Shown: positions 5,657 through 43,061, counted from the first letter of the stretch. The stretch: 60,854 bases of DNA from a bacterium (GCA_021811365.1 JAJZPB010000003.1:1-60854), one strand, 5' to 3'. Notes: generated by a model not told the origin, from the letters alone. Numbers and translations are program-made.

Positions 5657-6238
5657 TTACGCTGCCGCGCGGAGCAGCAGTTTGCGCTGTTCCGGTATAT
5701 CGGCCTTCAGGAAGGAAACGGTTTCAGTGAGCTCCTCTTCAAGGGTCATGGCGGTGAGGTGGTGAATGCGTTGCGTCCCATCGTCGCAATACGCTGCGTC
5801 GGCCGCAGCCAGGTACGGCTCGAGGGGTTTCCGTGCAATGTATGCGGTCGGCGCAACCCCTCCCTGTTCGAGGATACGGCTCCGCACCAGGCCCTTGTGG
5901 AAGCCGAGCGTCTGCGGGCAGGCCCCGAACCGGATTGCAGCGTGATAGGCCTCGCGGCCGTATTCGTGGATAAACAACGCACTGTACGCCCCGCGCTTGA
6001 GTGCGGGGATGATCTTGCGCTCGGTCATTTCGTTCATGTTGACCCAGCGCAGGAGCAGCCGAGAGGTGGGAAGCAGTGCTGCCATGTCCTCATGGTCCCT
6101 CGACACGCCGCTTTCAAAGGTGCTGCCGAGAAACGCGAACGCCTGATCCGGGAAATGGATACGGTGCAGGGACTCGAGTTCCTTGTACAGCGGGAGATCT
6201 GAAATGGAATACAAAAGAGCTGGTTGCTGCTGTCGCAC
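5657..6238 (-). CDS. Hypothetical protein, possibly a degenerate thymidylate-kinase-fold protein
   Basis: RLLLRW...KIIPALKRG resembles the TMK 'ELLLF...VIxPALxxG' segment, but there is no P-loop and no DR motif. Confidence 0.45.
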   Translation of the reverse strand: MRQQQPALLYSISDLPLYKELESLHRIHFPDQAFAFLGSTFESGVSRDHEDMAALLPTSRLLLRWVNMNEMTERKIIPALKRGAYSALFIHEYGREAYHAAIRFGACPQTLGFHKGLVRSRILEQGGVAPTAYIARKPLEPYLAAADAAYCDDGTQRIHHLTAMTLEEELTETVSFLKADIPEQRKLLLRAAA

Positions 6239-6377: not shown

Positions 6378-9236
6378 ATGAAGACCTCGGCGGCTTTTGA
6401 GGAGGCATACGCAAAGCTCAATGCAGAGCAGAAGCGCGCGGTCGACACGGTCGAGGGGCCGGTCATGGTGCTTGCCGGCCCGGGTACGGGTAAAACGAGC
6501 ATCCTCACCTTGCGGGTGGCGAATATCCTTCTCAAGACGGGCGCCAAGCCCGACGAGATCCTCGTGCTTACCTTTACCGACTCGGCCGCGCGCACGGTGG
6601 ATAAGCGCCTCGAGGCGCTTATTGGCGAGGAGGCGGCGCGCGCGGTGGGCGTCTACACGTTCCACAGCTTTGCCGACGAAGTGCTCAAGCGCTATCCGGA
6701 GGCCTTTCCGGATTTCGCTGATAGGCGGCAAATGGGCGAGGTCGAGCACGTACTGCTTTGGCGGGACGTGCTCGAACAGCATCCCTCGGCGCTTCTGCAG
6801 ACGCCGCGCTCACTCTTTCATTACCTCAAAGACCTTAAACAGCTCGAGGACAACCTGGTGCGCGAGTGCTTTTCGCTTGAGGCGTATGCTGCGTGGCTCG
6901 ACAGCGAAGCAAGACGCATCGAGGACGACCCATCGCTGCGCTACGCGCGCGCGACCAAGGACAAGGCAGTCGGCGACCTAAAACCAGAGGGAGAGCAGAA
7001 GCGCGCGCGGCTTGAGAAGGGAAGAGAAGCGATACGGCTCATTGAAGCGTACCGGCGCGAAAAGGATGCACGCGGGCTCTATGGATTTACCGACGTACTA
7101 CGCATCGTCGTCGATGCGCTTGGACGCGACGACGCACTGCGCGCGGACGTGCAGGAGCAGTACCAGTATGTGCTTGCTGACGAGCACCAGGATGCGAACG
7201 CGCTGCAGCACGCGCTGCTCGATGCGCTCGCATTCGATGACCACCCGAATCTTTTCGTGGTGGGCGATGAGAAGCAGGCTATTTTCGGTTTCCAAGGGGC
7301 CGACACTACGCATTTCGGAGCATTTTTGGAGCGCTACCCGCATACGAGCACGATCGCGCTATCGGAAAATTTCCGTTCGTACCAGGAGGTGCTCGATCTC
7401 TCTCACCGACTGCTGGCAGAGTTGCCCTCAAGTACCGGCGCTCATGTGGAGCTGACCGCTGCGCGCGGCCCCGGTGCGAAGATTCGCTTGCTTGCTGCAG
7501 AGGACCCGCTCGCCGAACGCGACGAGGTCGCGACGCTTGTGGAGCGCGCGCTTAAAGAGGGCGTTCCGCCGCACGAGGTTGCCGTCATTACGCTCAAGAA
7601 TAAAACAGCGGAGCTCTTCGCTACGCACCTGCGTGCGCGCGGCATACCAACGCTACGCGCGGGTGACGTCGACCTCGAAGGCCGTCCCGTAATCCGCGTG
7701 CTGCTTTCGCTCCTGCGTGCGACCGTCGACCCGACCGACATAGCCTCCCTGCGCGACGCGCTCCTTGCCCCCTGGTGGCAGGAGCCGCTTGCAGAGCGCG
7801 CGCTCTTTTTGCGTACCACGAGCGACCGCGAATGGGCGGCTGCGCTCGAAAACCGGTTTCCGCAGATTGCTCAGCTTGTGACGACGTTCCAACACCAGGC
7901 GCTCGAGATGCCGCCGCTTAATTTTATATCGGTGCTTCTCGCAAACAGCGGTGCCCGGGCCTACCTCCTGTCGAACGCCGAAGCGCTCGAAGAAGACGTA
8001 CCGCTCGTGCGCCGGCTCATACTCTATATTGAAGAACTTGTGGAGCGGGAACCGAACGAGAGCATTAGGAGCGTCATGGAAGCATTCGACAAGGCGCGCG
8101 AGCATGAGGTCGGCAGCATAAAAGCAAGTGTCACCCAGCGTGCGGGTTTTGTGACGGTGATCACTGCGCATAAAGCAAAGGGAATGGAGTTCCAGCGCGT
8201 GTTCGTGAGCGCGCTCACGAAAGGCGAGTGGGAAGGACGAGGCAGGGGCGCGCTCCTACCATCGCCGTTTGACTACACACGCGCGCGCGAAGAGCTGGTG
8301 CGGATTTTTTACGTCGCGCTTACGCGCGCGAAGGACGAGCTGGTGCTCTCGTACGCGCTTTCTAACGGCGAAGGCCGCGATCAGGCGCCAATCTCGCTTT
8401 TGCCTGTAGGCCTTGAGCGGGTCGAGGTGGACGCCGATCCGTTACCGCTTCTGCACGCAGTGCCGGACGCGCCCGCGCTCATTCGAGATCTGACGCTGCG
8501 CTATCTCACCCACGACGGGCTCTCGCCCTCCGCGTACAATGAATACCTCGAGTCGCCGCCGACTTTTTTTGCGAAGCGCGTGCTGCGCTTACGCGAACCG
8601 GAAACGCGCGCAATTGCAGCGGGGAATGCGGTGCACGCGGGCGTAGCGGAGTACCTGCGGACGGAAGGAAAAACGGCGGCGCGCGCTACTGCGGCGCGCG
8701 GCGCACTCGAGCGCTCATTTGCGCGCTCGCTTCTGCCACGCGGCGATGCGTTTGATGCGCTCGTAGCGCACGGCCACGCGCTTCTTGAACAGGCACTTCA
8801 CGAGCCGTTCTTCGAGCACGAGGCGCTCGAAGTAGAGCAAACAGTTTCACTGGTAAAAAAAATTAGCGGCCAGGATGTTGTGCTCAAGGGCACGCTCGAT
8901 GCGCTCGTTGCGCTTCCGGAAGGGGAGTGCATTATCGACTTTAAAACATCGCGCAGCATTGATAAAGAGACGAAAGAGAAATTTCAGCGGCAGATTGCTT
9001 TTTACGACGTGCTCCTGCGCAGCAATGGCCGCGCGCCGGTTTCCGGTCGTATCGTGCAGCTTACGGAGGACACGCTTGAAGAGTATCCGGTCATGCTTAC
9101 TGAAGCTATGCGCGAAGAGTTTATGACTACGCTTGATGCAGTACTTGCGGAACTTCTGAGCGGGCGCTGGCGCGCTGGCGCGCTTTCTGAATACGATAGC
9201 CTCCTCGAGTTTTTTGCCGCACCAAAAAAGAAATAA
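6378..9236 (+). CDS. UvrD/PcrA-family ATP-dependent helicase with C-terminal PD-(D/E)XK nuclease domain
   Basis: LNAEQKRAV, AGPGTGKT, DEHQD, VGDEKQAIFGFQG, ENFRS, TAHKAKGMEF, YVALTRAK; C-terminal LSPS..., KGTLD...IIDFKT; TACACT 7 nt before ATG 6378. Confidence 0.92.
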   Translation: MKTSAAFEEAYAKLNAEQKRAVDTVEGPVMVLAGPGTGKTSILTLRVANILLKTGAKPDEILVLTFTDSAARTVDKRLEALIGEEAARAVGVYTFHSFADEVLKRYPEAFPDFADRRQMGEVEHVLLWRDVLEQHPSALLQTPRSLFHYLKDLKQLEDNLVRECFSLEAYAAWLDSEARRIEDDPSLRYARATKDKAVGDLKPEGEQKRARLEKGREAIRLIEAYRREKDARGLYGFTDVLRIVVDALGRDDALRADVQEQYQYVLADEHQDANALQHALLDALAFDDHPNLFVVGDEKQAIFGFQGADTTHFGAFLERYPHTSTIALSENFRSYQEVLDLSHRLLAELPSSTGAHVELTAARGPGAKIRLLAAEDPLAERDEVATLVERALKEGVPPHEVAVITLKNKTAELFATHLRARGIPTLRAGDVDLEGRPVIRVLLSLLRATVDPTDIASLRDALLAPWWQEPLAERALFLRTTSDREWAAALENRFPQIAQLVTTFQHQALEMPPLNFISVLLANSGARAYLLSNAEALEEDVPLVRRLILYIEELVEREPNESIRSVMEAFDKAREHEVGSIKASVTQRAGFVTVITAHKAKGMEFQRVFVSALTKGEWEGRGRGALLPSPFDYTRAREELVRIFYVALTRAKDELVLSYALSNGEGRDQAPISLLPVGLERVEVDADPLPLLHAVPDAPALIRDLTLRYLTHDGLSPSAYNEYLESPPTFFAKRVLRLREPETRAIAAGNAVHAGVAEYLRTEGKTAARATAARGALERSFARSLLPRGDAFDALVAHGHALLEQALHEPFFEHEALEVEQTVSLVKKISGQDVVLKGTLDALVALPEGECIIDFKTSRSIDKETKEKFQRQIAFYDVLLRSNGRAPVSGRIVQLTEDTLEEYPVMLTEAMREEFMTTLDAVLAELLSGRWRAGALSEYDSLLEFFAAPKKK

Positions 9237-29856: not shown

Positions 29857-30435
29857 ATGATATTTACCCCACGCATGCAGAAGGCCGTCCGCTTTATGGT
29901 GAAGACGCACGAGGTGTACCAGAAGCAAAAGCGCAAAGGGAAAGACATTCCATACCTAACACACCCCTTTACTGCTGGCCTGATTCTTGCAAAGGCAGGT
30001 GCACACGAGGACGTGGTCATAGCGGGCCTGCTCCACGACACCATGGAGGACAGTCTCGACCACAAAAAGGTAACCCACGAGATGCTTGAAGAACGTTTTG
30101 GTAAACCGGTTGCCGACCTTGTGCAGAGTGTAAGTGAGCCGGTGAAAGACGCGGGCTGGGCAGAGCGCAAGCAAGCGGCACTGGGTCACATCGCCTTCTT
30201 CTCGCATGAATCCGTGCTTGTTAAGTCTGCCGATGTCCTGAGCAACACGGTAGAGCTGCTCGACGACTACGCCGCCGATGGCGAGGCAACGTTTGAGCGT
30301 TTCAATGCTGGGAAGACGCAAATTCTTGAGCGCACGCAAAAGGTGGTAGCCGCGCTGCTGGCGGCTTGGCCAGAAAGCCCGTTGGCAGAGGATCTTAGAA
30401 CTCTCTCGCAAGACGTTGCCAAAATGGCCGATTGA
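29857..30435 (+). CDS. HD-domain protein, RelA/SpoT hydrolase-like (small alarmone hydrolase / Mesh1 type)
   Basis: QKRKG...PYLTHP, AGLLHDTMED (HDxxED), VKSAD..SN. Confidence 0.85.
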   Translation: MIFTPRMQKAVRFMVKTHEVYQKQKRKGKDIPYLTHPFTAGLILAKAGAHEDVVIAGLLHDTMEDSLDHKKVTHEMLEERFGKPVADLVQSVSEPVKDAGWAERKQAALGHIAFFSHESVLVKSADVLSNTVELLDDYAADGEATFERFNAGKTQILERTQKVVAALLAAWPESPLAEDLRTLSQDVAKMAD

Positions 30436-31777: not shown

Positions 31778-31806
31778 ATTATACGCAAATGGCAGCTTAA
31801 TTTCAA
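31778..31806 (-). promoter_or_regulatory. Near-consensus sigma70 promoter firing leftward
   Basis: Minus strand TTGAAA (31806-31801)-N17-TATAAT (31783-31778). Confidence 0.8.
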
Positions 31807-31878
31807 GTGAGGCCACACATTTGTGGACTGCACGCCACCCTATGAAAAATGAAGATTTTGTGGGATAGTCTTCATATT

Positions 31879-34218
31879 ATGGGCTCGCTAAACGAAGCAG
31901 AAACGCGCTCTCGCCTCATCCGGCCAGCCTTTGTGCGTGCGGGCTGGGAGGAAAAACAAATCAGCGAGGAGGTGCCGTTTACGGCTGGCCGCATCATGGT
32001 GCGCGGCAAGACCATCTCCCGCGGAGAAAAGAAGCGCGCCGACTTCGTTCTCTACTACAAAAACAACCTGCCTATCGCGGTCGTTGAAGCGAAAGATATC
32101 AGCCACACCATTTCAGACGGCATACAGCAGGCACTTGAATACGCGGACATTCTCGACATTCCGTTCGTGTATAGCTCAAACGGCGAGGGCTTTGTTGAGC
32201 ACGACAAGCTTGCAGTGGGCGCGATTGAAAAGGAGCTATCCCTCGAGGCATTTCCATCGCCCGATGAGCTGTACCAGCGCTACTGCAAGGCTAAAGGCAT
32301 TACGCAAGAAAGCGGAACAGCGCTCATACAGGAATATCATCCCACGACCAAGCCTCGTTATTTCCAGCGCGTTGCGATCAATCGCGTCGTGGAAGCAGTT
32401 GCCAAAGGGCAGCAGCGCATTTTGCTCGTCATGGCGACCGGCACGGGTAAAACGTATACTGCGTTCCAAATCATTTGGCGGCTCTGGAAGTCGAAGCAGA
32501 AGCAGCGCATCTTGTTCCTTGTTGACCGCACGGCGCTCTCCGACCAAACATTCAAAAGCGACTTCCGCCACTTTGGCGATGCTCTCACGCAAGTCAAAGG
32601 TCCAAACGTCGACCCGGCCTACGAGGTGTACATCGCGCTCTACCAAGGGCTCATGGGCGGCGAAGCTGTAGAAAAGTTCAAGCAGTTCTCGCCGGACTTC
32701 TTTGACCTCATTGTGATCGATGAGTGTCACCGCGGGAGCGCTAAAGAAGACAGCGAGTGGCGCGCCATTCTCGATTACTACCAGTCCGCGACGCAAATCG
32801 GCCTTACGGCTACGCCGAAGGCGGCTGACGACGCGAACAACTTTGAATACTTTGGCGAGCCCATTTACACCTACTCGCTCAAGCAGGGGATTGAGGACGG
32901 CTTCCTTGCGCCATACAAAGTAATCCGCTACATCACCGACAAAGAAGAGTGGCGACCCGATAGCCTTGTGCGCGATAGTGCCGGGAACGAAGTCGAAGAC
33001 CGGATCTATACCACGGCCGACTACGATGCAAAAATCGTTATTGACGCTCGTACGAAACTGGTCGCCGAAAAGGTCGTAGAATTCATGCGCCAGACCGACC
33101 CCATGCAAAAGACGATTGTCTTCTGCGTAGATCAGGATCACGCCGCGCGGATGCGCCAGGCGCTCGTCAATGCGGCGGGCGACCTCGCGCGAGAAAACGC
33201 GCGCTACGTCGTGCGCATCACGGGCGATGACCAGGCAGGGAAGCTCGAAATCGACAATTTCATCAACCCCGAATCGCCGTATCCGGTCATTGCGACCACC
33301 TCAAAGCTCCTCTCGACGGGTGTGGACACGCAGACGGTGAAGCTCATTGTGCTCGATGCGCCCATGAACTCCATGACCGAGTTTAAGCAGATCATCGGCC
33401 GTGGCACGCGCGTAAACGAGCAGTACGGCAAGTACTACTTCACCATTATGGATTTCCGCAATGTGACGCGGCTCTTTGCGGACCCCGACTTCGACGGTGA
33501 AGCGGTCGAAACCTACGACGCGAAAGCGGAAGAAACCATTCCAGTGAAAGAAATCCTCGAAAAGGAAACCGTTTCTGAAGCGGAAATCTATCGCTCAAAT
33601 CCACGCGAAGAGATTCTCATTGACGGAACGGACACGGACCCACGGCCTAAAAAGATCCACATCACCGATGGTGTCACCTTTGATGTCGTACACAAGGTCG
33701 TGCAGTACATCGACCCGGCCACCGGCAAGCTGCGTACGGACACCATTGAGAAATTTAGCCAGCAGGCTATTCTCAGCAGTTTCGCTTCGCTTGAAGACTT
33801 CCTTAGCCGGTGGAATGCCGAAACACGCAAAGAAGCGCTCATTGTTGAGCTCGAGGCGCAGGGCATCATGTTTGACGAGCTGCGCGAAGACGTCGGTCAG
33901 GATTGCGATATCTTCGATCTCATTCTGCACGTCGCCTATGGCAAGAAGCCGCTCACGCGGAGCGAGCGACTCAAGAAGGCGAGGGCTAGCGACTACTTCG
34001 CCAAGTACGAGGGCAAAGCACGGGAAATCATCGACCATCTGCTTGAGAAGTATGCGGAGCACGGCATCACCGCCATAGACGACATTGGCGACCTCACCGT
34101 TTCGCCCTTTAGCGAGTACGGCGGGCCGGTGGAGATTGTTGAGGAAATCTTTGGCGGTCGAGAGAAATACCTAGAAGTAATTCGGGAGATAGAGCAGCAG
34201 CTTTATACTGCTGAATAG
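31879..34218 (+). CDS. hsdR: Type I restriction enzyme R subunit (EcoEI/EcoAI-like)
   Basis: AD..L...N.PIAVVEAK nuclease motif; ATGTGKT, DECH, TATP; EcoEI_R_C-like HVAYGKKPLTRSER. Confidence 0.95.
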   Translation: MGSLNEAETRSRLIRPAFVRAGWEEKQISEEVPFTAGRIMVRGKTISRGEKKRADFVLYYKNNLPIAVVEAKDISHTISDGIQQALEYADILDIPFVYSSNGEGFVEHDKLAVGAIEKELSLEAFPSPDELYQRYCKAKGITQESGTALIQEYHPTTKPRYFQRVAINRVVEAVAKGQQRILLVMATGTGKTYTAFQIIWRLWKSKQKQRILFLVDRTALSDQTFKSDFRHFGDALTQVKGPNVDPAYEVYIALYQGLMGGEAVEKFKQFSPDFFDLIVIDECHRGSAKEDSEWRAILDYYQSATQIGLTATPKAADDANNFEYFGEPIYTYSLKQGIEDGFLAPYKVIRYITDKEEWRPDSLVRDSAGNEVEDRIYTTADYDAKIVIDARTKLVAEKVVEFMRQTDPMQKTIVFCVDQDHAARMRQALVNAAGDLARENARYVVRITGDDQAGKLEIDNFINPESPYPVIATTSKLLSTGVDTQTVKLIVLDAPMNSMTEFKQIIGRGTRVNEQYGKYYFTIMDFRNVTRLFADPDFDGEAVETYDAKAEETIPVKEILEKETVSEAEIYRSNPREEILIDGTDTDPRPKKIHITDGVTFDVVHKVVQYIDPATGKLRTDTIEKFSQQAILSSFASLEDFLSRWNAETRKEALIVELEAQGIMFDELREDVGQDCDIFDLILHVAYGKKPLTRSERLKKARASDYFAKYEGKAREIIDHLLEKYAEHGITAIDDIGDLTVSPFSEYGGPVEIVEEIFGGREKYLEVIREIEQQLYTAE

Positions 34219-34222
34219 CACC

Positions 34223-34744
34223 ATGAAGAAAGACGTAAACAATTACGCGTTCATAGACAGTCAAAACGTAAATCTTGCCATCCGCGAGCTCGGTTGGAGA
34301 CTCGATTGGCGTCGTTTTCGTACCTACTTAAGGGAGAAGTACGGCGTAACGAAGTCGTTTCTGTTTATTGGGTTTGTGCAAGGAAATCAGGATTTATATA
34401 CCGCACTTCAAGATGCTGGTTTTGTGTGCGTATTCAAGCCGGCACTCACGTATAAGGATGGGACCACTAAAGGAAACTGTGACGCAGAATTGGTCTTGCA
34501 GGCAATGATCGAACGAGACAACTATGATAAGGCGATTATCGTGACTGGGGATGGAGATTTCTATTGCCTCGTCAAGTACTTTATCGATCAGCAAAAGCTT
34601 GAGGTGCTGTTGGTGCCGAATAAAAAGAAGTTCTCAGCCTTGCTCAAGGCACGAATTTGCCGACCATATTTACGGTACCTAAACGACCTGCAAGAGAAGC
34701 TGGCCTATAAAAAGAAAAGGCCCCATGAGGACGAAACCTCATAG
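34223..34744 (+). CDS. NYN / LabA-DUF88 PIN-like ribonuclease
   Basis: FIDSQN, KGNCDAELV, IVTGDGDF acidic motifs. Confidence 0.9.
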   Translation: MKKDVNNYAFIDSQNVNLAIRELGWRLDWRRFRTYLREKYGVTKSFLFIGFVQGNQDLYTALQDAGFVCVFKPALTYKDGTTKGNCDAELVLQAMIERDNYDKAIIVTGDGDFYCLVKYFIDQQKLEVLLVPNKKKFSALLKARICRPYLRYLNDLQEKLAYKKKRPHEDETS

Positions 34745-34839
34745 GGTTATCTCTTCCGTTGGTGATATCGCCAGTATACGCGCTGAACATGAAGAAATCA
34801 AGAAGCGGTAGAATACGAGAACAAGTCCAGTTTTGACCT

Positions 34840-36285
34840 ATGGCAGACATCGGCAACATCATCAAAGCGATTCAGAACATCATGCGCAAAGACGCGGGTG
34901 TCGACGGCGATGCCTTGCGCCTCTCGCAGCTTGCGTGGATGCTTTTCCTCAAGATTTTCGATGACCACGAGACGCAGCAAGAGTATGTAGACGCGGCGTA
35001 TCGTTCACCAATTCCGGAAAAACTGCGCTGGCGCAACTGGGCGGCAAACCAGGAGGGTATTACGGGTGACGAGCTCTCGGCCTTTATCGACAAAGAGCTT
35101 TTCCCGGCGCTGCGCAGTTTGCCGGTATCCGACCCGAATTCTCCGGCTGCCATCATTCAGAGCGTGTTCGTGGACTCCTACAACTACATGAAAAATGGCA
35201 CGCTTATGCGCCAGGTCATCAACAAGCTGCAGGAGATCAATTTCAACAAGAGCGCCGATCGCCACCAGTTCGGCGACGTGTACGAAAAGCTCCTTAAAGA
35301 CCTGCAGAGCGCCGGTAACTATGGCGAGTTCTACACGCCGCGCCCGCTGACGAAATTCATCGTCGAAATGGTGGACCCGAAGCTTGGCGATACCGTGCTC
35401 GACCCGGCCTGCGGCACGGGCGGCTTTCTCATAAACATCCTCGAGTACGTGCGGGCGAAGCAAGTCAAAACAGCCGCCGACGAGAAGCAGCTCGAAGCTT
35501 CCGTGCGCGGCATTGAGCTCAAGGGCTTGCCGCACCTTCTTGCCACGACCAACTTCCTCCTGCACGATGTCGAGAACCCGAGCGCGCTCAAGCACGACGA
35601 CGCGCTCGCTAAACCGCTCACGCAATGGGGCCCGGCAGATCGGGTAGACGTAATTGTGGCCAACCCGCCCTTCGGCGCCTCCGTGGCCGACGGCACGCAG
35701 GCGAATTTTCCAGCCGAGCTGCGCACCAAGGCGACCGAGCTCCTCTTCCTTCAACTTTTTATTCACCTACTTAAGCCAGGCGGCAGGGCAGGTATCGTAT
35801 TGCCCGACGGCGTCTTTTTCGCCGAAGGCGTAGCGAGCAAAATAAAAGAGAAGCTCCTCACCGAGTGCAATGTGCACACGATTGTGCGCCTGCCGCCCGG
35901 TGTCTTCAACCCGTACGCGGGCGTAAATACCAACCTCGTCTTTTTTGAGAAAGGGAAGTCCACCGAAGAAGTGTGGTACTACCAAATGCCGCTCCCCGAG
36001 GGCGTCCGCGCCTACACCAAGACCAAGCCCATTACCGAGGCAGAGTTCGATCCTGTAAAAAAGTGGTGGGGCGGAGAAGCCCGCGCGGGCCGCAAAGCCG
36101 GCCCGCGCGCCTGGCGCGTCAGCATCGCCGACATCCGCGCCCGCTCCTTCAACCTCGACTTCAAAAACCCCAACGGCCCTGCAGCAGCAGCCCAAAAAAC
36201 TCCGAAAGAGATTTTGGCCGATTTTGAAAGCAAAGAAAAACAAATCTCCGCGCTGTTGGGGGAGATGAAGAAGGAAATAGTCTAA
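34840..36285 (+). CDS. hsdM: Type I R-M methyltransferase subunit (m6A)
   Basis: GEFYTPR, DPACGTGGFL, ANPPF, GIVLPDG, VRLP.GVF.PY motifs. Confidence 0.96.
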   Translation: MADIGNIIKAIQNIMRKDAGVDGDALRLSQLAWMLFLKIFDDHETQQEYVDAAYRSPIPEKLRWRNWAANQEGITGDELSAFIDKELFPALRSLPVSDPNSPAAIIQSVFVDSYNYMKNGTLMRQVINKLQEINFNKSADRHQFGDVYEKLLKDLQSAGNYGEFYTPRPLTKFIVEMVDPKLGDTVLDPACGTGGFLINILEYVRAKQVKTAADEKQLEASVRGIELKGLPHLLATTNFLLHDVENPSALKHDDALAKPLTQWGPADRVDVIVANPPFGASVADGTQANFPAELRTKATELLFLQLFIHLLKPGGRAGIVLPDGVFFAEGVASKIKEKLLTECNVHTIVRLPPGVFNPYAGVNTNLVFFEKGKSTEEVWYYQMPLPEGVRAYTKTKPITEAEFDPVKKWWGGEARAGRKAGPRAWRVSIADIRARSFNLDFKNPNGPAAAAQKTPKEILADFESKEKQISALLGEMKKEIV

Positions 36286-36290
36286 AATCT

Positions 36291-37355
36291 ATGGCTTTTT
36301 CGAAGGTTCCAAAAATTTCAAAAAATCGAATAAATTTGGCAGGGAAAGTTCTTGCTAAAAAGAAACCAAACGGGTTAAGTCTGGAAGACGCTATTTCCAT
36401 AGCTGACGCTTGGAGGGCATGTCATGCGTACCCGATTAATACATTTCAATCAACTCTGAGACGCAAGTTAAGTAAATTTTCTAATAACCCGCTCGTTGCT
36501 CAACGACTAAAGCGCATGCCCACTATCATCGATAAATTGCATCGATATCCAAAAATGCAACTTTCCAGGATGCAGGATATTGGTGGAGTACGAGCCATCC
36601 TGGGATCCGTTCACGATGTTTATCTGTTGGCAGAAGAATACAAAGACAAAAGCCGCTTCGCGCATGAGCTTATAGGACAAAAAGACTACATTAAATGTCC
36701 TCGTGACGACGATGGGTACAGAAGTCTCCACCTTATATATAAGTATAAGAATAAGCAGGCACAAGAATACGACGGATTGTTGCTTGAGTTGCAAATACGA
36801 ACCAAATTACAACATACATGGGCAACTGCGGTTGAGACTATGGGTACTTTTCTTGGACAAGCCCTAAAATCACGACTAGGAGACAAGGCTTGGCTCGAGT
36901 TCTTTTCAGCTGTTAGCTCGACTTTTGCTTCTATCGAAAACACAAACTTGCTTGAGAAGCATAAAGCTCTATCTCAGGAAGAACTTTTTCGTAAAGTTGC
37001 TTCGATGAACGGTGAGCTAAGGGTCCTCGAAAAAATAAGAGGATATTCTATTGCGGTAAATGAAATAAACAAGAGAGGTACTTCCGACGTGGGCTGGTCC
37101 TACCATCTAATTATTTTGAATTCCGAACAGAAGACTGTACAGATCAAGCCATACAAAAGAGGAAGTATTAAACAAGCGACGGAGGATTATTCGAAAGTTG
37201 AAGAGGAGGCTACTCGAGGGAAGAAAATTGAAGCAGTTTTAGTGTCGGCGGGCCCTCTGTCTGCACTGAGACAAGCATACCCGAACTTCTTTCTTGATAT
37301 AAGCGATTTTGTCGGCCGGATTGAGTCGATCGTTGCTGAAAGCAAGAAATTATGA
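36291..37355 (+). CDS. RelA/SpoT synthetase-domain protein, fused CapRel-like toxin-antitoxin
   Basis: WRACHAYP, QRLKR, MQDIGGVR, GYRSLH, ELQIRT..QH.WATAVE; C-terminal VLVS....LRQAYPNFF resembles the CapRel antitoxin anchor. Confidence 0.85.
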   Translation: MAFSKVPKISKNRINLAGKVLAKKKPNGLSLEDAISIADAWRACHAYPINTFQSTLRRKLSKFSNNPLVAQRLKRMPTIIDKLHRYPKMQLSRMQDIGGVRAILGSVHDVYLLAEEYKDKSRFAHELIGQKDYIKCPRDDDGYRSLHLIYKYKNKQAQEYDGLLLELQIRTKLQHTWATAVETMGTFLGQALKSRLGDKAWLEFFSAVSSTFASIENTNLLEKHKALSQEELFRKVASMNGELRVLEKIRGYSIAVNEINKRGTSDVGWSYHLIILNSEQKTVQIKPYKRGSIKQATEDYSKVEEEATRGKKIEAVLVSAGPLSALRQAYPNFFLDISDFVGRIESIVAESKKL

Positions 37356-37404
37356 TGTCTTTATTTAAAGAGATCTCAAAGCAATCATCAATGATAAAAC
37401 AATC

Positions 37405-37590
37405 ATGACTAATATCATTGAATTTATTCTCAATTACTTTTTCGTCCCGATCTATATGATCTTCCGGGGCATTTGGAAACTTTTTTCGAAATTACTCAAA
37501 GACGTAACTGGCCATATATACGGCAAGATTTTAGTGCCATTTCTTGCGCTAGCCATTGTGGCATATCTTGCGCATCTCTTTATAAAATGA
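37405..37590 (+). CDS. 61-aa small membrane protein, translationally coupled to hsdS
   Basis: Hydrophobic C-terminal helix; its TGA overlaps the hsdS ATG (ATGA 37587-37590). Confidence 0.6.
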   Translation: MTNIIEFILNYFFVPIYMIFRGIWKLFSKLLKDVTGHIYGKILVPFLALAIVAYLAHLFIK

Positions 37591-38657
37591 CCTATCCAAT
37601 CAAAAAACTTGGACAGGTTGTTGAATTTCGGTATGGGAAAGGTATTGACCGAAGTAGGCGTAACGAAAGCGGCGATGTACCCATTTACGGTGCTAATGGC
37701 ATTTTGGGTTGGACAGATAAAGTATTAATTTCTGGAGAGGCGATTATCGTCGGGCGGAAGGGTTCGGCAGGTGAACTGACACGGGTGGCAGGAAGATTTT
37801 GGCCGTCAGATGTTACGTATTATGTGTTTGGCAATGATCAAATAGACGTTGATTATCTTTTTTATTTTTTAAAAAGCGTAAACTTGCCACAGCTTGCAGC
37901 AGGAGTGAAGCCCGGCATCAACCGCAATCAGGTTTATCAAATCGAGATTCCGGTGCCGCCTTTGGCAGAGCAGAGGAAGATTGTGGCGAAGATAGAAAAG
38001 CAGTTTGCGAAGATAGACGAGGCCGCGCGCTTGCGCGCGGAGAGCCAGACCCTCACCGCCCAGCTCCTCCCCGCCGCCCTCCACGAAATCTTTTCCTCCG
38101 CCGAATCAAAAGGGTGGGGAGAAAAATCGCTTGGTGATCTCTGCGACATTTTAGACAGTAAACGAAAACCAATCACAAAACGAGATCGCAAATCTGGGTG
38201 CTATCCATACTATGGGGCAACGCAGGTGCAGGATTATGTTGCCGGTTATATTTTTGATGAGCCGCTTATTCTTCTTGGGGAGGACGGTGCTCGTTGGGGT
38301 GCAAACGAACAGAGCGCTTATCATATTGTCGGAAAGTCATGGGTGAATAATCACGCGCACGTTTTGCGGCCGCATCGAGACGAGCTTCTTGATGCATGGC
38401 TCGTATATGTATTGAACACCGAAGATCTGTCCCGATACATAACTGGAACGACTGTCAAAAAGTTAAACCAAGAAAAAATGCGAAGCATAAAAATCCCGCT
38501 TCCACCTCTCGCCGAGCAGAAGAAAATCGTCAAAAAGCTCGATGCACTTGCCGAAAAAGCCCGTGCCCTCGCCGCGCTCCAATCCGCTCAGGCCGCCGAC
38601 TTTAAGGCATTGAAACAATCTATTCTTCACGAAGTATTTTCAGGAGAGGTACAATAG
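37587..38657 (+). CDS. hsdS: Type I R-M specificity subunit (two TRDs)
   Basis: Two TRDs, each followed by IPVPPLAEQRKIV / IPLPPLAEQKKIV conserved helices; LKQSILHEVF end. Confidence 0.95.
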   Translation: MTYPIKKLGQVVEFRYGKGIDRSRRNESGDVPIYGANGILGWTDKVLISGEAIIVGRKGSAGELTRVAGRFWPSDVTYYVFGNDQIDVDYLFYFLKSVNLPQLAAGVKPGINRNQVYQIEIPVPPLAEQRKIVAKIEKQFAKIDEAARLRAESQTLTAQLLPAALHEIFSSAESKGWGEKSLGDLCDILDSKRKPITKRDRKSGCYPYYGATQVQDYVAGYIFDEPLILLGEDGARWGANEQSAYHIVGKSWVNNHAHVLRPHRDELLDAWLVYVLNTEDLSRYITGTTVKKLNQEKMRSIKIPLPPLAEQKKIVKKLDALAEKARALAALQSAQAADFKALKQSILHEVFSGEVQ

Positions 38658-38661
38658 AGAT

Positions 38662-38874
38662 ATGGAAATGATTCCCGTTTCGTCATCTGATATCCGGGCC
38701 ATCGGCTACGATGCGGCCACGGCGACATTGAGAGTCGATTTTATCTCGGGCGGCATATACGAGTATTTTGATGTACCGGAGTCTGTGCACGCCAATTTCC
38801 TGCGCGCGGCATCGTATGGGGAATTTTTAAATGATTTTATTCGATACAACTATCGGTATCAAAGAATCGGCTGA
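38662..38874 (+). CDS. KTSC-domain protein
   Basis: VSSSDIRAIGYD....TLRVDF..GG.YEY..VP......F..A.S.G.F.N..IR pattern. Confidence 0.88.
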   Translation: MEMIPVSSSDIRAIGYDAATATLRVDFISGGIYEYFDVPESVHANFLRAASYGEFLNDFIRYNYRYQRIG

Positions 38875-38875
38875 T

Positions 38876-39626
38876 ATGTTTACGCCTAAAACAGATCGGA
38901 TCGCTGAGGTGGCCAGCGAGAAAGCAAGAACAATTCAGGAGCTTGATCGGCTGCTCGGCAGTTCCACGCGCATGTATATAGACTATGCAAATGTGCGACC
39001 GTGGAGTACTCGGCTTGGATGGCATATCGATTTGAAAGCGCCTCAAGCAGTTTCTCGACTCGTTCGATACCATCCAGAAAGTGAACTTCTATGGCGGCTA
39101 CCTAGAGGGCGACGAACGCTCGGAGCAGGAGATCAAGGATGGAGAACAGCACAAATATGTTGTGCGTACGAAACCAGTCAAAATTATGCAGTTCCCAATC
39201 GATGCGTCGAGCATACCGCCAGACTCGACCGCGCTTCTTGATCAGTTTGTTAAGCGGTCACTCCTCCGAAAATACGAGGTCAGTACTATCGAGTATCTGA
39301 ATAACCGCTTCCGTGATATGAACAAGAAAGGTGAGTATTATATTGAAGATCGAAAATGCAATTTTGATGTCGAAATTGGCGTCGATATGCTTCTCGACTA
39401 CGAACGTGATGGGACAGAGACGTACGCATTGTGGACCGGCGACAGCGACTTTGCCGACCCTGTGCGGAAATTGTTACAAGCGGGCAGGAAAGTGATTATT
39501 TTCGCTACCGCGAGGAAAGTCTCTAAGGAACTCTCCGCTCTGCGGAATAACGGTCTCCTTATCTTCGATATCCAGAAAATACGCGATTTTATTTGCTGGA
39601 AAAAAGAAATGGATACGTCCAAATAA
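38876..39626 (+). pseudogene. NYN-domain ribonuclease split by one extra A at ~39035-39037
   Basis: Frame 1 gives ...YIDYANV...WHIDL; removing one A continues KRLKQFLDSFDTIQKVNFY...KCNFDVEIGVD...TGDSDF. Confidence 0.82.
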
Positions 39627-39752
39627 AGCAAAGGGGACCCCTTGCGGGGCCCCCAAGCTCTAGAATTCGCGATCTTGCGATCAAGGGCACTTTACCAAGA
39701 TTTACCTGAAAAAGCAATGAGCTGTGGATTGCCCAAATCCCTCTTCTCGCCC

Positions 39753-39893
39753 CTCGCCGAGCAGAAGAAGATCGTCAAAAAGCTCGATGCACTTGCCGAA
39801 AAAGCCCGCGCCCTCGCCACGCTCCAATCCCAGCAAGCTGCCGACCTCAAAGCTCTCAAGCAATCCATCCTGCACGAGGCGTTTGCCGTATGA
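39753..39893 (+). repeat. Displaced copy 2 of the hsdS 3' end (141 nt)
   Basis: 39753-39830 matches hsdS 38508-38585 at 75/78 nt (manual alignment); encodes LAEQKKIV...LKQSILHEAFAV*. Confidence 0.93.
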
Positions 39894-39926: not shown

Positions 39927-40481
39927 ATGAATAGGTTTGAGTCTAATTCTCCGCAGAGAGAGACGGCGCCCAAAGAGTTTGAGTGGGTTTACGAAAAGAG
40001 TGGCGGCGAGTGGCGGGCTGTTCGTGCTCCCAAGGTTGTCGCATTTTCGCAAGGCGGAGTTGAAGAAAAAGATAGACGTGCTAACAATACGCTCAAAATG
40101 CTGCGAGATATGGAAGAGAAATGGCAGCTTAATGACCCGGCGGTGGAGCATAATGAAGGTATTCTGCGCGACCATCCGTTTTATCACGATTTGTTTATAA
40201 AATGGGCGCAGCGGTATTTGGAGATGAAGCACTTCGACACGAGCGAGTTTTCCGGTCGTCTAGATGAGGGTGAGGGGAACCTTCTTTTGCCCAATGGGAG
40301 GTTTTCAAAGGTGTGGCTGACAAATGTAGTTGCGAACGGCAGAGAGTGGGTCGACGAACAGGTAGCAAATGAGCTATTGATATCTCAAGGCTTTCTCGAT
40401 ATTACGAATAACCACGAAAGACAAGAAGAACTTGGTATCGAGCCGGAAAACGACGGTTGGTGGACTCAAGACGAGGTGTAA
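39927..40481 (+). CDS. Hypothetical protein (184 aa)
   Basis: TGc-TATCGT 6 nt upstream of ATG; no motif recognised. Confidence 0.65.
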   Translation: MNRFESNSPQRETAPKEFEWVYEKSGGEWRAVRAPKVVAFSQGGVEEKDRRANNTLKMLRDMEEKWQLNDPAVEHNEGILRDHPFYHDLFIKWAQRYLEMKHFDTSEFSGRLDEGEGNLLLPNGRFSKVWLTNVVANGREWVDEQVANELLISQGFLDITNNHERQEELGIEPENDGWWTQDEV

Positions 40482-40491
40482 AGAGTTTCGC

Positions 40492-40626
40492 ATGGACGAC
40501 GAGATTTTTGAAAAGGCGAAGGAGGAGGACCTGAGTGCCGATGAGGCACACGAGCTCGCAGACTTTATGGACGAGAACGGTATCGATGATGTCGACGAGG
40601 CATACGAGATTTGGAGTGAGTTGTAG
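40492..40626 (+). CDS. 44-aa extremely acidic protein
   Basis: MDDEIFEKAKEEDLSADEAHELADFMDENGIDDVDEAYEIWSEL; 19/44 residues are D/E; spaced ~10 nt from both neighbours. Confidence 0.7.
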   Translation: MDDEIFEKAKEEDLSADEAHELADFMDENGIDDVDEAYEIWSEL

Positions 40627-40635
40627 AATAGGATT

Positions 40636-40965
40636 ATGGATGAGGAAGAAATTCGAAAGTGTGTGGAAGCGGCTGGTGCTGCGGGGCTGCCTACGCCAGT
40701 GCGGCTTACGGTGCGGTATCATCCAGACCTTTGGAACATAACGGGTGTATCTGAGGAGCCGATGCTGATGGGTGGGAGCGGTACCTTCCTTTACGTTTTG
40801 CAAAACATACTTGCGGCGCATCCTGAGATAGAAAAGAAGTACCCGCCCGGTGCCCTCGCGATTTTCTTAAACGATTCAATACCCAAACCGCATTCACCGC
40901 TCTTTGATGGAGACCTTATTCGACTGGCTCCCAAGGATAGTTTGCTGCCCCCTCGCAGTGCATAA
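40636..40965 (+). CDS. MoaD/ThiS-like beta-grasp (ubiquitin-like) protein without C-terminal GG
   Basis: VRLTVRY...ITGVSEE...T...VL..I...HP.I...AIFLN....PLFDGD.I.L.P pattern; ends LLPPRSA. Confidence 0.65.
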   Translation: MDEEEIRKCVEAAGAAGLPTPVRLTVRYHPDLWNITGVSEEPMLMGGSGTFLYVLQNILAAHPEIEKKYPPGALAIFLNDSIPKPHSPLFDGDLIRLAPKDSLLPPRSA

Positions 40966-41001
40966 CCCGCGTCCTGTTGGATGGCGTAGTAGTATGGGCA
41001 C

Positions 41002-41967
41002 ATGAAGAAAGCGCAGAAAGAAAAAGAAACGTCGGTCGTTTTCCAAGCTAAAAACGGAGCCATTGAGCTGCGCGGCGATGTTGCGCGCGAGACGATTTGG
41101 GCGACGCAGGCGCAGATTGTGAAGCTATTTGGGGTCGATCAGTCGGTCGTCTCTCGCCACGTGCGCAACATTTTTAAAGACGGAGAAGTGAGTCCCAAAA
41201 GCAATATGCAAAAAATGCATACTGCTCATTCTGACCGGCCCGTTGCTCTGTACTCGTTGGATGTAGTTTTAGCAGTCGGCTACAGGACAAATTCAAAGGT
41301 GGCAATAGCGTTTCGCCAATGGGCGACCAAGACGCTGCGCGAGCACATAACCCGCGGCTACACTATAAACCGCAAACAAATTGGCAATAACTACGACGCC
41401 TTTATGCGCGCCGTGGGCGACATTCAGTCGCTCTTGCCAGCGCACGTGACGCTCGACCCGAATCAGGTGCTTGAGCTCATTAAAGAATTTGCAAGCACGT
41501 GGGTGTCGCTCGATGCGTACGATAAGGATGCGCTTAAACCGATTGGCACGACAAAAAAAGCAGTACGACTGAGTGCGGAGGAGCTCTCTGCGGCGATTTC
41601 TCGGCTGCGCGACGAGCTTATGCGAAAGGGCGAAGCGACGGACTTGTTTGCACATGAGCGACAGGCGGGAACTGTCGAGGGTATAGTCGGCAACGTGATG
41701 CAGGCGTTCGGCGGCAAGTCGCTCTATGCGAGCGTGGAAGAGAAGGCGGCGCACCTGCTGTACTTTATGGTGAAGAACCACCCGTTCTCGGACGGCAACA
41801 AGCGGTCGGGCGCTTTCGCGTTTGTGTGGTTCTTGCGGAAAGCAGGCGGGAAGAAGAATCGCGTAATAACGCCGGCGGCGCTCACCGCGCTTACGCTCTT
41901 GATTGCCGAGAGCGATCCTGCGCACAAGGAGAAAATGACCGCGCTCGTGACGCGGCTACTTGCGTAA
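41002..41967 (+). CDS. RhuM-like DNA-binding domain fused to a Fic/Doc domain
   Basis: ETIWATQ.QI..LF...H..NIF, YSLDVVLAVGYRTNS..A..FRQWA (RhuM); HPFSDGNKRSG (Fic/Doc). Confidence 0.9.
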   Translation: MKKAQKEKETSVVFQAKNGAIELRGDVARETIWATQAQIVKLFGVDQSVVSRHVRNIFKDGEVSPKSNMQKMHTAHSDRPVALYSLDVVLAVGYRTNSKVAIAFRQWATKTLREHITRGYTINRKQIGNNYDAFMRAVGDIQSLLPAHVTLDPNQVLELIKEFASTWVSLDAYDKDALKPIGTTKKAVRLSAEELSAAISRLRDELMRKGEATDLFAHERQAGTVEGIVGNVMQAFGGKSLYASVEEKAAHLLYFMVKNHPFSDGNKRSGAFAFVWFLRKAGGKKNRVITPAALTALTLLIAESDPAHKEKMTALVTRLLA

Positions 41968-42053
41968 CGTTCGAGGTTTTTCAGCGGTGTACGCCCAGCG
42001 CGTTGTCGATGTAATGCTCTTAAGAAGTCCATTCTGAACGACGCACCCGCAAT

Positions 42054-42506
42054 ATGAACTACTGGCTGATGAAGACGGAACCGGGGGAGTTTTCGATCGA
42101 TGACCTCAAGCGCATTAAGGAGGAGCCCTGGACGGGCGTGCGCAACTACCAGGCGCGGAACTACATGCGCGACACCATGGCGGTGGGGGACGCGGTGCTG
42201 ATCTACCACTCGAGCTGCGAGGTGCCGGGCGTGTATGGAATGGCGAAGGTTTCGCACTTGGCGGAGCCAGACGCGGCGCAGTTTGACCCGAAGAGTAAAT
42301 ACTATGACGCGAAGGCGCGGCGCGAAGCGCCGCGGTGGTGGGGCGTGCGAGTGCGCTTCGTGAAAAAGCTTGCTGTGCCCGTGCCACTCTCTGTACTCAA
42401 GAAAGACAAGAAGCTGCAGAAGATGTTCCTCTTCACCAATGGGCGGCTCTCGGTGGGGGCCGTTACAAAGGCCGAGTACGAGCGTATTCTCGCGCTTGCA
42501 AGGTAG
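42054..42506 (+). CDS. EVE-domain protein (THYN1-like)
   Basis: YWLMKTEP, WTGVRNYQARNYM, GD.V.IYHS, RLSV.AV motifs. Confidence 0.92.
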   Translation: MNYWLMKTEPGEFSIDDLKRIKEEPWTGVRNYQARNYMRDTMAVGDAVLIYHSSCEVPGVYGMAKVSHLAEPDAAQFDPKSKYYDAKARREAPRWWGVRVRFVKKLAVPVPLSVLKKDKKLQKMFLFTNGRLSVGAVTKAEYERILALAR

Positions 42507-42556: not shown

Positions 42557-42613
42557 GCCGACCTCAAAGCTCTCAAGCAATCCATTCTCCGTGAGGCGTT
42601 CTCCAATGTATGA
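42557..42613 (+). repeat. Displaced copy 3 of the hsdS 3' end (57 nt)
   Basis: 42557-42585 is identical to 39840-39868 (29 nt); encodes ADLKALKQSILREAFSNV*. Confidence 0.9.
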
Positions 42614-42930: not shown

Positions 42931-43011
42931 TGGTGTGCTCCTTTTTTCTGTAGTAACTGTACCACAAAATATGAATAGTGCAAGTGAGCTGGGAGTGAGG
43001 AAAATCGAAAC

Positions 43012-43030
43012 GGGCCGCGCAGCGCGGCCC
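43012..43030. repeat. GC palindrome copy 1 (GGGCCGCGC-N-GCGCGGCCC)
   Basis: Same 9-bp arms as 43600-43620. Confidence 0.75.
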
Positions 43031-43061
43031 GCCTTTTAGCTGTCTGTTATACTCTTGGCCT

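Follow-up and report, generated by a model that had tools for sequence, protein, structure and literature searches.

How does a restriction-modification (R-M) operon come to hold foreign, toxin-like genes between its subunit genes, and do these genes form one machine with the R-M enzyme or are they separate passengers? The question is raised by a type I R-M operon in a 60,854-nucleotide (nt) stretch of bacterial DNA (GCA_021811365.1, JAJZPB010000003.1:1-60854; “the window” hereafter denotes this whole stretch, with positions counted from its first letter). The host genome comprises 787,663 bases in 32 contigs of a metagenome-type assembly, is 97% complete, and is of a size typical of the candidate phyla radiation (CPR)/Patescibacteria. 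Pfam and PADLOC scans of the open reading frames (ORFs) yield the plus-strand gene order hsdR, NYN1, hsdM, a CapRel-like toxSAS gene, a membrane protein ORF of 61 amino acids (aa), hsdS, KTSC, and NYN2, the same order that had been proposed in an earlier note on this DNA. As that note also anticipated, the inserts are of the toxin or defense type: PADLOC assigns the toxSAS to PDC-S33, a RhuM/Fic protein encoded further downstream to PDC-S23, and NYN2, one of the two NYN nucleases, weakly to HEC-09. We argue that this horizontally acquired operon in a CPR-like genome is probably not one machine but a landing pad on which at least four toxin, defense, or addiction cassettes, each independent and self-contained, have settled.

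HsdR, HsdM, and HsdS are encoded by separate genes at one locus, in open frames of 789, 481, and 356 aa with full-length Pfam and PADLOC matches, and the operon is apparently intact in gene content. hsdR (31849..34218, plus strand; ResIII, 3e-42; EcoEI_R_C, 7.7e-29; PADLOC REase_I, 1.4e-301) encodes a restriction subunit with an EcoEI/type IB-like C-terminus and is read here from 31849, with 31879, the start used in the earlier note, as an alternative ATG. The methyltransferase gene hsdM (34840..36285, plus strand; N6_Mtase, 1e-68; HsdM_N; PADLOC MTase_I, 3.5e-200) precedes hsdS (37587..38657, plus strand; Methylase_S, 4.3e-46, in two stretches), whose product is a specificity subunit with two target-recognition domains; the hsdS start is the ATG at 37587, which overlaps the stop codon of the 61-aa ORF (ATGA), and not the upstream TTG at 37473. 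Read off the sequence in order from hsdR to NYN2, the gaps are 4, 95, 5, 49, -4 (the ATGA overlap), 4, and 1 nt.

Base composition supports a foreign origin of the inserts. Compared with host-genome ORFs of at least 250 aa (guanine-cytosine (GC) fraction 0.568 ± 0.032, first percentile 0.471), hsdR (0.547) and hsdM (0.575) lie within the host-like range, NYN1 (0.452), CapRel (0.419), and the 61-aa ORF (0.36) fall below the first percentile, and hsdS (0.472), KTSC (0.474), and NYN2 (0.473) lie about at it. Per-gene GC thus bears out the earlier contrast between AT-rich inserts and host-like hsdR and hsdM, except that the AT-richness reaches hsdS too. Sharp GC steps at the cassette edges, in a 32-contig assembly of the metagenome type, are also what would be expected if AT-rich fragments of other organisms had been merged into a GC-rich contig during assembly or binning. 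We consider such an artefact extremely improbable: the reading frames slot together precisely, with 1–5-nt junctions, and two independent public assemblies match the window at 100% identity, one from the HD_4 gene upstream of the operon to hsdS (L083) and the other from the hsdS tail to a second copy of that tail downstream of NYN2, a frameshift in NYN2 included (L204). Because these assemblies reproduce them at 100% identity, neither the junctions nor the frameshift are assembly artefacts.

The hsdR-hsdM junction is occupied by NYN1 (34223..34744, plus strand; PF01936, 1.5e-13, with a score above the Pfam cut-off; PDB 2QIP, 1.3e-9), which encodes a 173-aa LabA/DUF88-type NYN nuclease, begins 4 nt past the hsdR stop codon, and lacks a promoter of its own. 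The catalytic aspartates D12, D87, D110, and D112 show no variation among 24 relatives. The family comprises at least 7983 matching proteins, many of them exactly 173 aa long and 72–78% identical; the homologs with a named source come mostly from CPR lineages, and the phage collection contains no NYN1 homolog. Across 80 metagenomic loci, the great majority of the immediate neighbors are genes of housekeeping function (DNA polymerase III alpha, RNA polymerase, ATP synthase, tRNA synthetases, MreB, and ribosomal protein L1), often at tight junctions (-20 to +22 nt), and R-M neighbors are confined to ResIII (twice) and N6_Mtase (once) upstream and N6_Mtase (twice) downstream.

Comparison of the NYN1 relatives points to an RNA partner. 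The regions preceding the start codons share nothing among relatives, that is, there is no conserved 5' leader, and DNA similarity always extends some 25–35 nt beyond the stop codon. The 3' ends of 73 relatives contain a conserved nucleotide element; because the position of this element shifts relative to the stop codon, the constraint acts on nucleic acid and not on protein. At this end of NYN1, we predict a convergent antisense small RNA (sRNA) gene, sRNA-1 (34709..34801, minus strand), with a -35 box (TTGATT, 34801-34796), a -10 box (TATACT, 34778-34773), a start near 34766, and an end near 34709. The predicted RNA of about 58 nt would consist of a two-tier hairpin and a U-run and overlaps the last 36 nt of NYN1. 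In relatives, the layout on the minus strand is CTTGACAT, 17 nt, TGCTATAAT, 5–6 nt, ATCACCAAC, the two-tier hairpin, and the U-run, and all inspected relatives have the promoter consensus TTGACA-N17-TGnTATAAT together with the hairpin.

The hairpin is strongly constrained: 96.8% of the alignment cells are paired, 10 of the 17 pairs show compensatory changes, none of 500 shuffles reached as high a value, and in slid registers, pairing drops to 45–71%. Two pairs are mostly G.U or U.G on the minus strand, which amounts to A.C mismatches on the plus strand, and the minus strand has the more stable fold in 37 of 50 sequences (Wilcoxon p = 1e-5). With a plain MAFFT alignment, in which the subfamilies are shifted relative to each other, the RNAalifold consensus was weak; anchored alignments and a covariance model (R1), built from 29 sequences, resolved the hairpin. 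Model R1 finds the element at the 3' ends of non-seed NYN1 homologs and once in the genome under study and has no match in those of the included loci that lack a NYN1 homolog. A structure of the plus-strand 3' untranslated region (UTR) is disfavored by the U.G wobbles, the folding energies, and the canonical minus-strand promoter, and a hok/sok-like fold-back of the NYN1 3' UTR onto its start was dropped given that the relatives lack a conserved 5' leader. The 95-nt spacer between NYN1 and hsdM is not empty because the sRNA-1 promoter lies there, and the inserted unit, as delimited by these predicted elements, is NYN1 plus its sRNA gene, about 590 nt in all. Tandem neighboring copies of NYN1-family genes are present at four loci (L117, L140, L144, and L155), in one of which (L140) each copy has an R1 element.

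A second module, whose nuclease gene is likewise faced by a predicted antisense sRNA gene, lies behind hsdS. It consists of KTSC (38662..38874, plus strand; PF13619, 7.1e-22; PDB 7X8C), which encodes a 70-aa KTSC-domain protein, the partner of NYN2, and NYN2 itself (38876..39626, plus strand; PADLOC HEC-09, 1.6e-6), a gene for an NYN nuclease of about 249 aa that is interrupted by a 1-nt frameshift near 39033-39040, at an AAA run, such that the 54 N-terminal codons are in frame 2 and the remaining 195 in frame 0. Owing to the frameshift, the Pfam match (PF01936) is through the C-terminal half only; the read-through product matches intact proteins of 245–258 aa over the full length at 80–87% identity. 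The KTSC protein may be a docking or regulatory domain, to judge from its sequence; besides stand-alone KTSC structures, it matches (4.5e-15) the C-terminal 64 residues of a HerA-type helicase chain (PDB 8WIV). The predicted sRNA-2 gene (39624..39717, minus strand; -35, 39717-39712; -10, 39694-39689; start near 39682, end near 39624) would encode a GAUC-GCAA-GAUC hairpin followed by a GC-rich terminator. Ten loci share its promoter, a GAUC-GNAA-GAUC hairpin, and a GC-rich terminator whose end falls at the NYN2 stop codon; 96.9% of the cells are paired, compensatory changes affect 8 of 13 pairs (a level that none of 500 shuffles attained), and a G.U pair on the minus strand in 9 of the 10 sequences marks the strand. 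Neither sRNA-1 nor sRNA-2 has a matching Rfam family, and a literature search turned up no paper that pairs NYN-domain proteins with antisense-RNA antitoxins.

KTSC directly precedes NYN2 homologs of at least 72% identity at four other loci (L174, L177, L205, and L206) and is absent beside more distant homologs. The module is located among metabolic genes in L177, behind a type III R-M system in L174, and near a methyltransferase-like gene in L206; altogether, three of five KTSC-NYN2 contexts adjoin R-M genes. In L174, a 32-nt direct repeat (5733-5764 and 6920-6951; 97% identical) flanks the KTSC-NYN2-sRNA module. Because they have antisense sRNA genes of their own and occur mostly (NYN1) or often (KTSC-NYN2) outside R-M contexts, NYN1 and KTSC-NYN2 are best regarded as autonomous cassettes.

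Autonomy of this kind raises the prospect of pure selfishness, whereby toxin-antitoxin cassettes would parasitize operons and stabilize both themselves and the R-M island, with no net phage defense. Such a reading is favored by the presence of NYN1 with its sRNA gene, lacking its own promoter, among the housekeeping genes of many genomes, by the tandem copies in this family, by the decay of NYN2, and by the lack of a defense phenotype for HEC-09, an NYN candidate, in the preprint passages discussed below. The R-M neighbors of three of the five KTSC-NYN2 contexts count against it, as does the cargo of the next junction.

That junction, between hsdM and hsdS, contains a gene for a 354-aa fused toxSAS of the CapRel family, with a RelA_SpoT toxin domain and a putative C-terminal antitoxin/sensor domain (36291..37355, plus strand; PF04607, 3.2e-16; PADLOC PDC-S33, 1.8e-121), which begins 5 nt past the hsdM stop codon. 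Residues 8–342 align with CapRelSJ46 (PDB 7ZTB and 9ERV; E-value 5.6e-30), the C-terminal domain included, and within the phage collection, no gene matches better than that of SJ46 itself (29.6% identity over 96% of the length). The RelA/SpoT motifs RMQDIGG, DGYRSLHL, and ELQIRT.LQH.WA can be aligned to 7ZTB and do not vary among 24 relatives; the anchoring motif, YPNY in CapRelSJ46, is YPNF here and invariant as such in the subfamily. CapRelSJ46 is an experimentally established anti-phage protein, and PDC-S33 and PDC-S23 are, in the preprint passages drawn on here, defined by their embedding in defense systems. Together with the R-M neighbors of KTSC-NYN2, these points lead us to regard an island of purely selfish addiction modules as possible, albeit improbable, and to retain the view of the operon as a landing pad for cassettes of which some would protect the cell.

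The genomic distribution of the CapRel homologs, of which there are more than 5000, reveals a distinct lineage. Among 80 loci in representative genomes (45–77% identity), only the closest two (L001 and L002) are embedded, with CapRel separating a type III mod gene from the associated res gene at 1–5-nt junctions; the other 78 are in unrelated contexts, none of them directly 3' of a methyltransferase gene. A tblastn search with the Hsd proteins of the window missed R-M neighbors of other families, and Pfam scans of the flanking ORFs were used instead. By these scans, all closer relatives that could be placed (78–89% identity) lie directly 3' of a DNA methyltransferase gene: a type I hsdM, with a half-size hsdS and an EcoR124-like hsdR following (L081); an HSDR_N_2/N6_Mtase/Eco57I fusion gene (L082, L084, and L089), with a specificity subunit next in the latter two and the next gene cut by the contig end in L082; a type III mod (L086); and an EcoRI-type methylase, with GmrSD following (L087). 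In the last of these, a 184-aa NYN protein (L087 10833-11387) and a Panacea (SocA)-type toxin-antitoxin gene are found 1–3 kb downstream of CapRel. Hence, at all nine loci (9/9) with 73% identity or more, CapRel lies immediately 3' of a methyltransferase gene, the contexts being type I, IIG-like, type III, and EcoRI-methylase. In a maximum-likelihood tree of 85 rows, which included 76 of the 78 non-embedded genome loci, the nine embedded copies form one clade (a single label change, recovered in 91% of bootstrap trees; 0 of 500 label shuffles as clustered), with short branches and interleaved R-M types. In most loci, the copies cease to resemble each other at the DNA level no more than about 10 nt outside the coding sequence; the junctions have the form TAA-N2-5-ATG.

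This position bears directly on the integrated guard proposed in the earlier note, in which RNases and the toxSAS would watch over the R-M complex and be set off by phage inhibition of restriction, in the manner of PrrC in EcoprrI. The clade sits directly behind a methyltransferase gene across four R-M contexts, at tight junctions, and its C-terminal sensor region is nearly as conserved (75–76%) as the enzyme domain (83%), compared with 51% for the same region in non-embedded relatives; further, in the source passages used here, PrrC hardly ever occurs other than within type I R-M operons, and Ocr is sensed by other systems. Yet the methyltransferases that precede CapRel come from unrelated families (N6_Mtase, N6_N4_Mtase, and EcoRI_methylase), which argues against a specific protein-protein guard, the characterized CapRel homolog senses a phage capsid protein and not the restriction status, and the PADLOC scans detected no PrrC homolog among the ORFs. 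The NYN cassettes, for their part, live mainly outside R-M systems with their own RNA partner, and NYN2 is a pseudogene.

The R-M system of the window is absent from all 36 same-genus genomes searched, and three genomes of the same order have orthologous R-M operons (62–65% identity). In two of these (G051 and G045), hsdR and hsdM are adjacent, 8–11 nt apart, and the junction is empty; in the third (G057), the same junction holds a RhuM/Fic gene 63% identical to that at 41002-41967 of the window. In one orthologous operon (L191, G051:C1, 8047-9393, minus strand), the hsdM-hsdS junction is taken up by an unrelated 448-aa gene that matches nothing in Pfam or PADLOC; in that genome (G051), hsdS is followed by a 147-aa ORF and an IS200-type transposase. 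The positions of the inserts thus recur in other genomes, as the earlier note had envisaged, with different occupants. The full R-NYN-M-CapRel-S combination was not found at any other locus examined and so appears unique to this strain, and the junctions of the orthologous operons are either empty or filled with other cargo. Taken together with the separate lives of the parts and the broken NYN2, this leaves a layered guard triggered by restriction inhibition without support, and we judge it quite unlikely; the strict post-methyltransferase position of the CapRel clade is the one observation that still allows for a functional link to R-M. The landing-pad interpretation accommodates the variable occupancy directly, with the junctions acting as reusable slots.

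The 3' end of hsdS appears to retain a record of such insertions. It is present three times as direct repeats: the functional copy (38505-38657), a displaced tail that lacks the hsdS body (39750..39893, plus strand; the first 78 nt 96% identical to copy 1, the rest diverged), and a third copy (42557..42613, plus strand; 91% identical to copy 2 over 44 nt) that encodes ...ADLKALKQSILREAF... These repeats bracket KTSC-NYN2-sRNA and a second cargo block (39927..42506, plus strand), which comprises ORFs of 184 aa, 64 aa (acidic), and 109 aa, the RhuM/Fic gene (41002-41967; RhuM, 2.4e-16; Fic, 2.9e-12; PDC-S23, 2.9e-103), and an EVE gene (42054-42506; 4.2e-50). The observed pattern of proximal near-identity and distal divergence is what one crossover would yield if the resident tail recombined with a tail borne by an incoming circular element, and from this pattern we infer a recombination route through the hsdS tails. 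The small ORF at 40432-40626 (plus strand) in this block is very acidic and has no Pfam or PADLOC match. A RadC-based synteny search for an island-free site met with RadC sequences only 37–45% identical in relatives, and in few genomes.

The remaining element of the hsdM-hsdS junction, the 61-aa ORF (37405..37590, plus strand), is probably a genuine small membrane protein with two predicted helices. It has six homologs besides itself (34–58% identity) with the common motif LNY..PI..W....D..H.Y, one of them fused onto the end of a 228-aa protein; the single homolog context inspected has no R-M link, Pfam and PADLOC scans give no match, and the ORF is absent from the other eight R-M-embedded CapRel loci. 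Along the plus strand, the first site resembling a terminator whose stem is long and GC-rich (9 G-C pairs) comes at 43011-43031, which is compatible with read-through transcription without proving it. The top promoter-like site of the region (31778-31806, minus strand; TTGAAA, 17 nt, TATAAT; 11 of 12 matches) is just upstream of the operon and directed away from hsdR. Six kilobases upstream of the toxSAS, the window encodes a 192-aa HD_4/HD protein of the small-alarmone-hydrolase fold with host-like GC (29857-30435, plus strand), and HD_4 homologs are located about 3.4 kb upstream of CapRel homologs in 2 of the 80 loci (L056 and L060). Small alarmone hydrolases serve as antitoxins for some toxSAS toxins, and such a role of the HD_4 protein toward CapRel was considered but set aside on account of the distance, the host-like GC, and the rarity of the pairing.

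These observations suggest a working model in which the R-M enzyme would be the first line of defense, CapRel would cause abortive infection in response to a phage protein, and the RNA-controlled NYN nucleases would act as addiction or abortive modules. NYN1 would be expressed by read-through from hsdR, and its convergent sRNA of about 58 nt, overlapping the 3' end, would make the pair a type I-like toxin-antitoxin or RNA-controlled nuclease module; by analogy with known systems, the short-lived RNA would restrain the nuclease mRNA or protein, and loss of the locus or shut-off of transcription would free the nuclease. For CapRel, homology implies autoinhibition, with the N-terminal enzyme kept inactive by the C-terminal domain until the binding of a phage protein, upon which the freed enzyme would pyrophosphorylate tRNA 3' ends, resulting in translation arrest and abortive infection; the clade seems to be specialized for the site exactly behind a methyltransferase gene, with tight junctions suggestive of translational coupling. 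KTSC-NYN2 with its sRNA would be a second nuclease module, inactivated by the frameshift, and the RhuM/Fic-EVE block, further downstream, a fourth cassette. The cassettes behind hsdS may have entered by recombination in the conserved hsdS 3' end, leaving displaced tails. Embedding would provide the cassettes with expression, co-inheritance with R-M, and a site that is hard to delete from, and the cell would gain layered yet uncoordinated protection.

Several points weigh against this interpretation. Typical type I toxins are small membrane peptides, not enzymes, and the NYN nuclease might instead use the sRNA as a substrate, guide, or sensor; co-transcription and both sRNAs are themselves predictions from sequence. 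The nine embedded CapRel loci fall into only about five distinct R-M backbones, and shared ancestry hence accounts for some of the co-occurrence; the exclusive methyltransferase linkage of this clade could mean a functional coupling to R-M that a description as independent cassettes underplays. Finally, HEC-09, the NYN candidate of Payne et al., gave no phage defense according to the passages of that preprint considered here (Payne et al. 2024, 10.1101/2024.01.29.577857). A bolder, and in our estimate rather doubtful, generalization would be that CPR R-M operons are capture platforms that promoterless toxin cassettes enter via gene tails, with phage-induced shut-off of host transcription or blockage of R-M freeing the toxins, since these would be transcribed from the R-M promoter and restrained by short-lived RNAs or fused domains, so that restriction is followed by abortive infection; the cassettes involved would be NYN RNases with convergent sRNAs, as an undescribed RNA-antitoxin class, and the CapRel clade exactly behind methyltransferase genes.

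The locus is a compact example of defense-island building gene by gene, within about 11 kb or 1.4% of a 0.79-Mb genome, and presents the junctions of an R-M operon as interchangeable cargo slots. It brings to light a CapRel lineage with a testable insertion rule, directly behind a methyltransferase gene of any R-M type, and two covariation-supported modules of an NYN nuclease and a predicted antisense sRNA, neither described in Rfam or the searched literature. Should the toxin in these modules prove to be an enzyme held in check by an RNA antitoxin, the concept of type I toxin-antitoxin systems would be broadened, and the thousands of “LabA/DUF88” genes of uncultured bacteria would find an explanation.

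Among known systems, type I toxin-antitoxin loci with a convergent, 3'-overlapping antisense RNA include txpA/RatA and bsrG/SR4 of Bacillus subtilis and Fst/RNA II of par. Both NYN genes resemble these in that a protein gene is faced by a short, strongly promoted, 3'-overlapping antisense RNA with an intrinsic terminator, here predicted from a conserved promoter and a covarying terminator hairpin; they differ in encoding soluble NYN nucleases (of 173 and about 249 aa) instead of small hydrophobic peptides and in that the presumed toxin gene is promoterless. The toxSAS shares with CapRelSJ46 (PDB 7ZTB) full-length homology, including the C-terminal domain, and an apparently single-gene architecture, but is chromosomal and R-M-embedded where CapRelSJ46 is prophage-borne, and has YPNF in place of YPNY. 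The R-M enzyme keeps PrrC physically masked until a phage anti-restriction peptide sets the nuclease free. The locus is similar to PrrC/EcoprrI (type Ic) in harboring a predicted RNA-targeting suicide effector inside a type I R-M operon and dissimilar in that PADLOC finds no PrrC homolog and the inserts also occur outside R-M or, in the case of CapRel, behind unrelated methyltransferase families; PrrC itself is, in the preprint passages considered, almost exclusively embedded in type I R-M (Payne et al. 2024, 10.1101/2024.01.29.577857). DarTG2 is embedded in a type I R-M island of enteropathogenic Escherichia coli, at a site proposed to be a recombination hotspot (PMC12255303), and is likewise a toxin-antitoxin defense system nested between hsd genes; there, the toxins are different, the hsdS-hsdR junction is used, and a dedicated repressor, RptR, is present that was not found here. 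The statement of the earlier note that type I operons can embed back-up effectors thus has precedents in PrrC, DarTG2, and, as far as the cited passages go, the PDC and HEC candidates. Most genes nested in operons of type I R-M, BREX, DISARM, and Hma are, as those passages describe, defense systems, and the PDC models, including PDC-S33 and PDC-S23, and the HEC-09 class were derived from such genes (Payne et al. 2024, 10.1101/2024.01.29.577857). With its foreign, defense-type genes nested between hsd genes, the locus is a rich instance of this published phenomenon of embedded defense genes; compared with the portions of the preprint considered here, it is set apart by several junctions of one operon being filled at once, two inserts with predicted antisense sRNA genes, which these passages do not mention, one CapRel clade strictly 3' of methyltransferase genes, and hsdS tails that appear to record the insertions.

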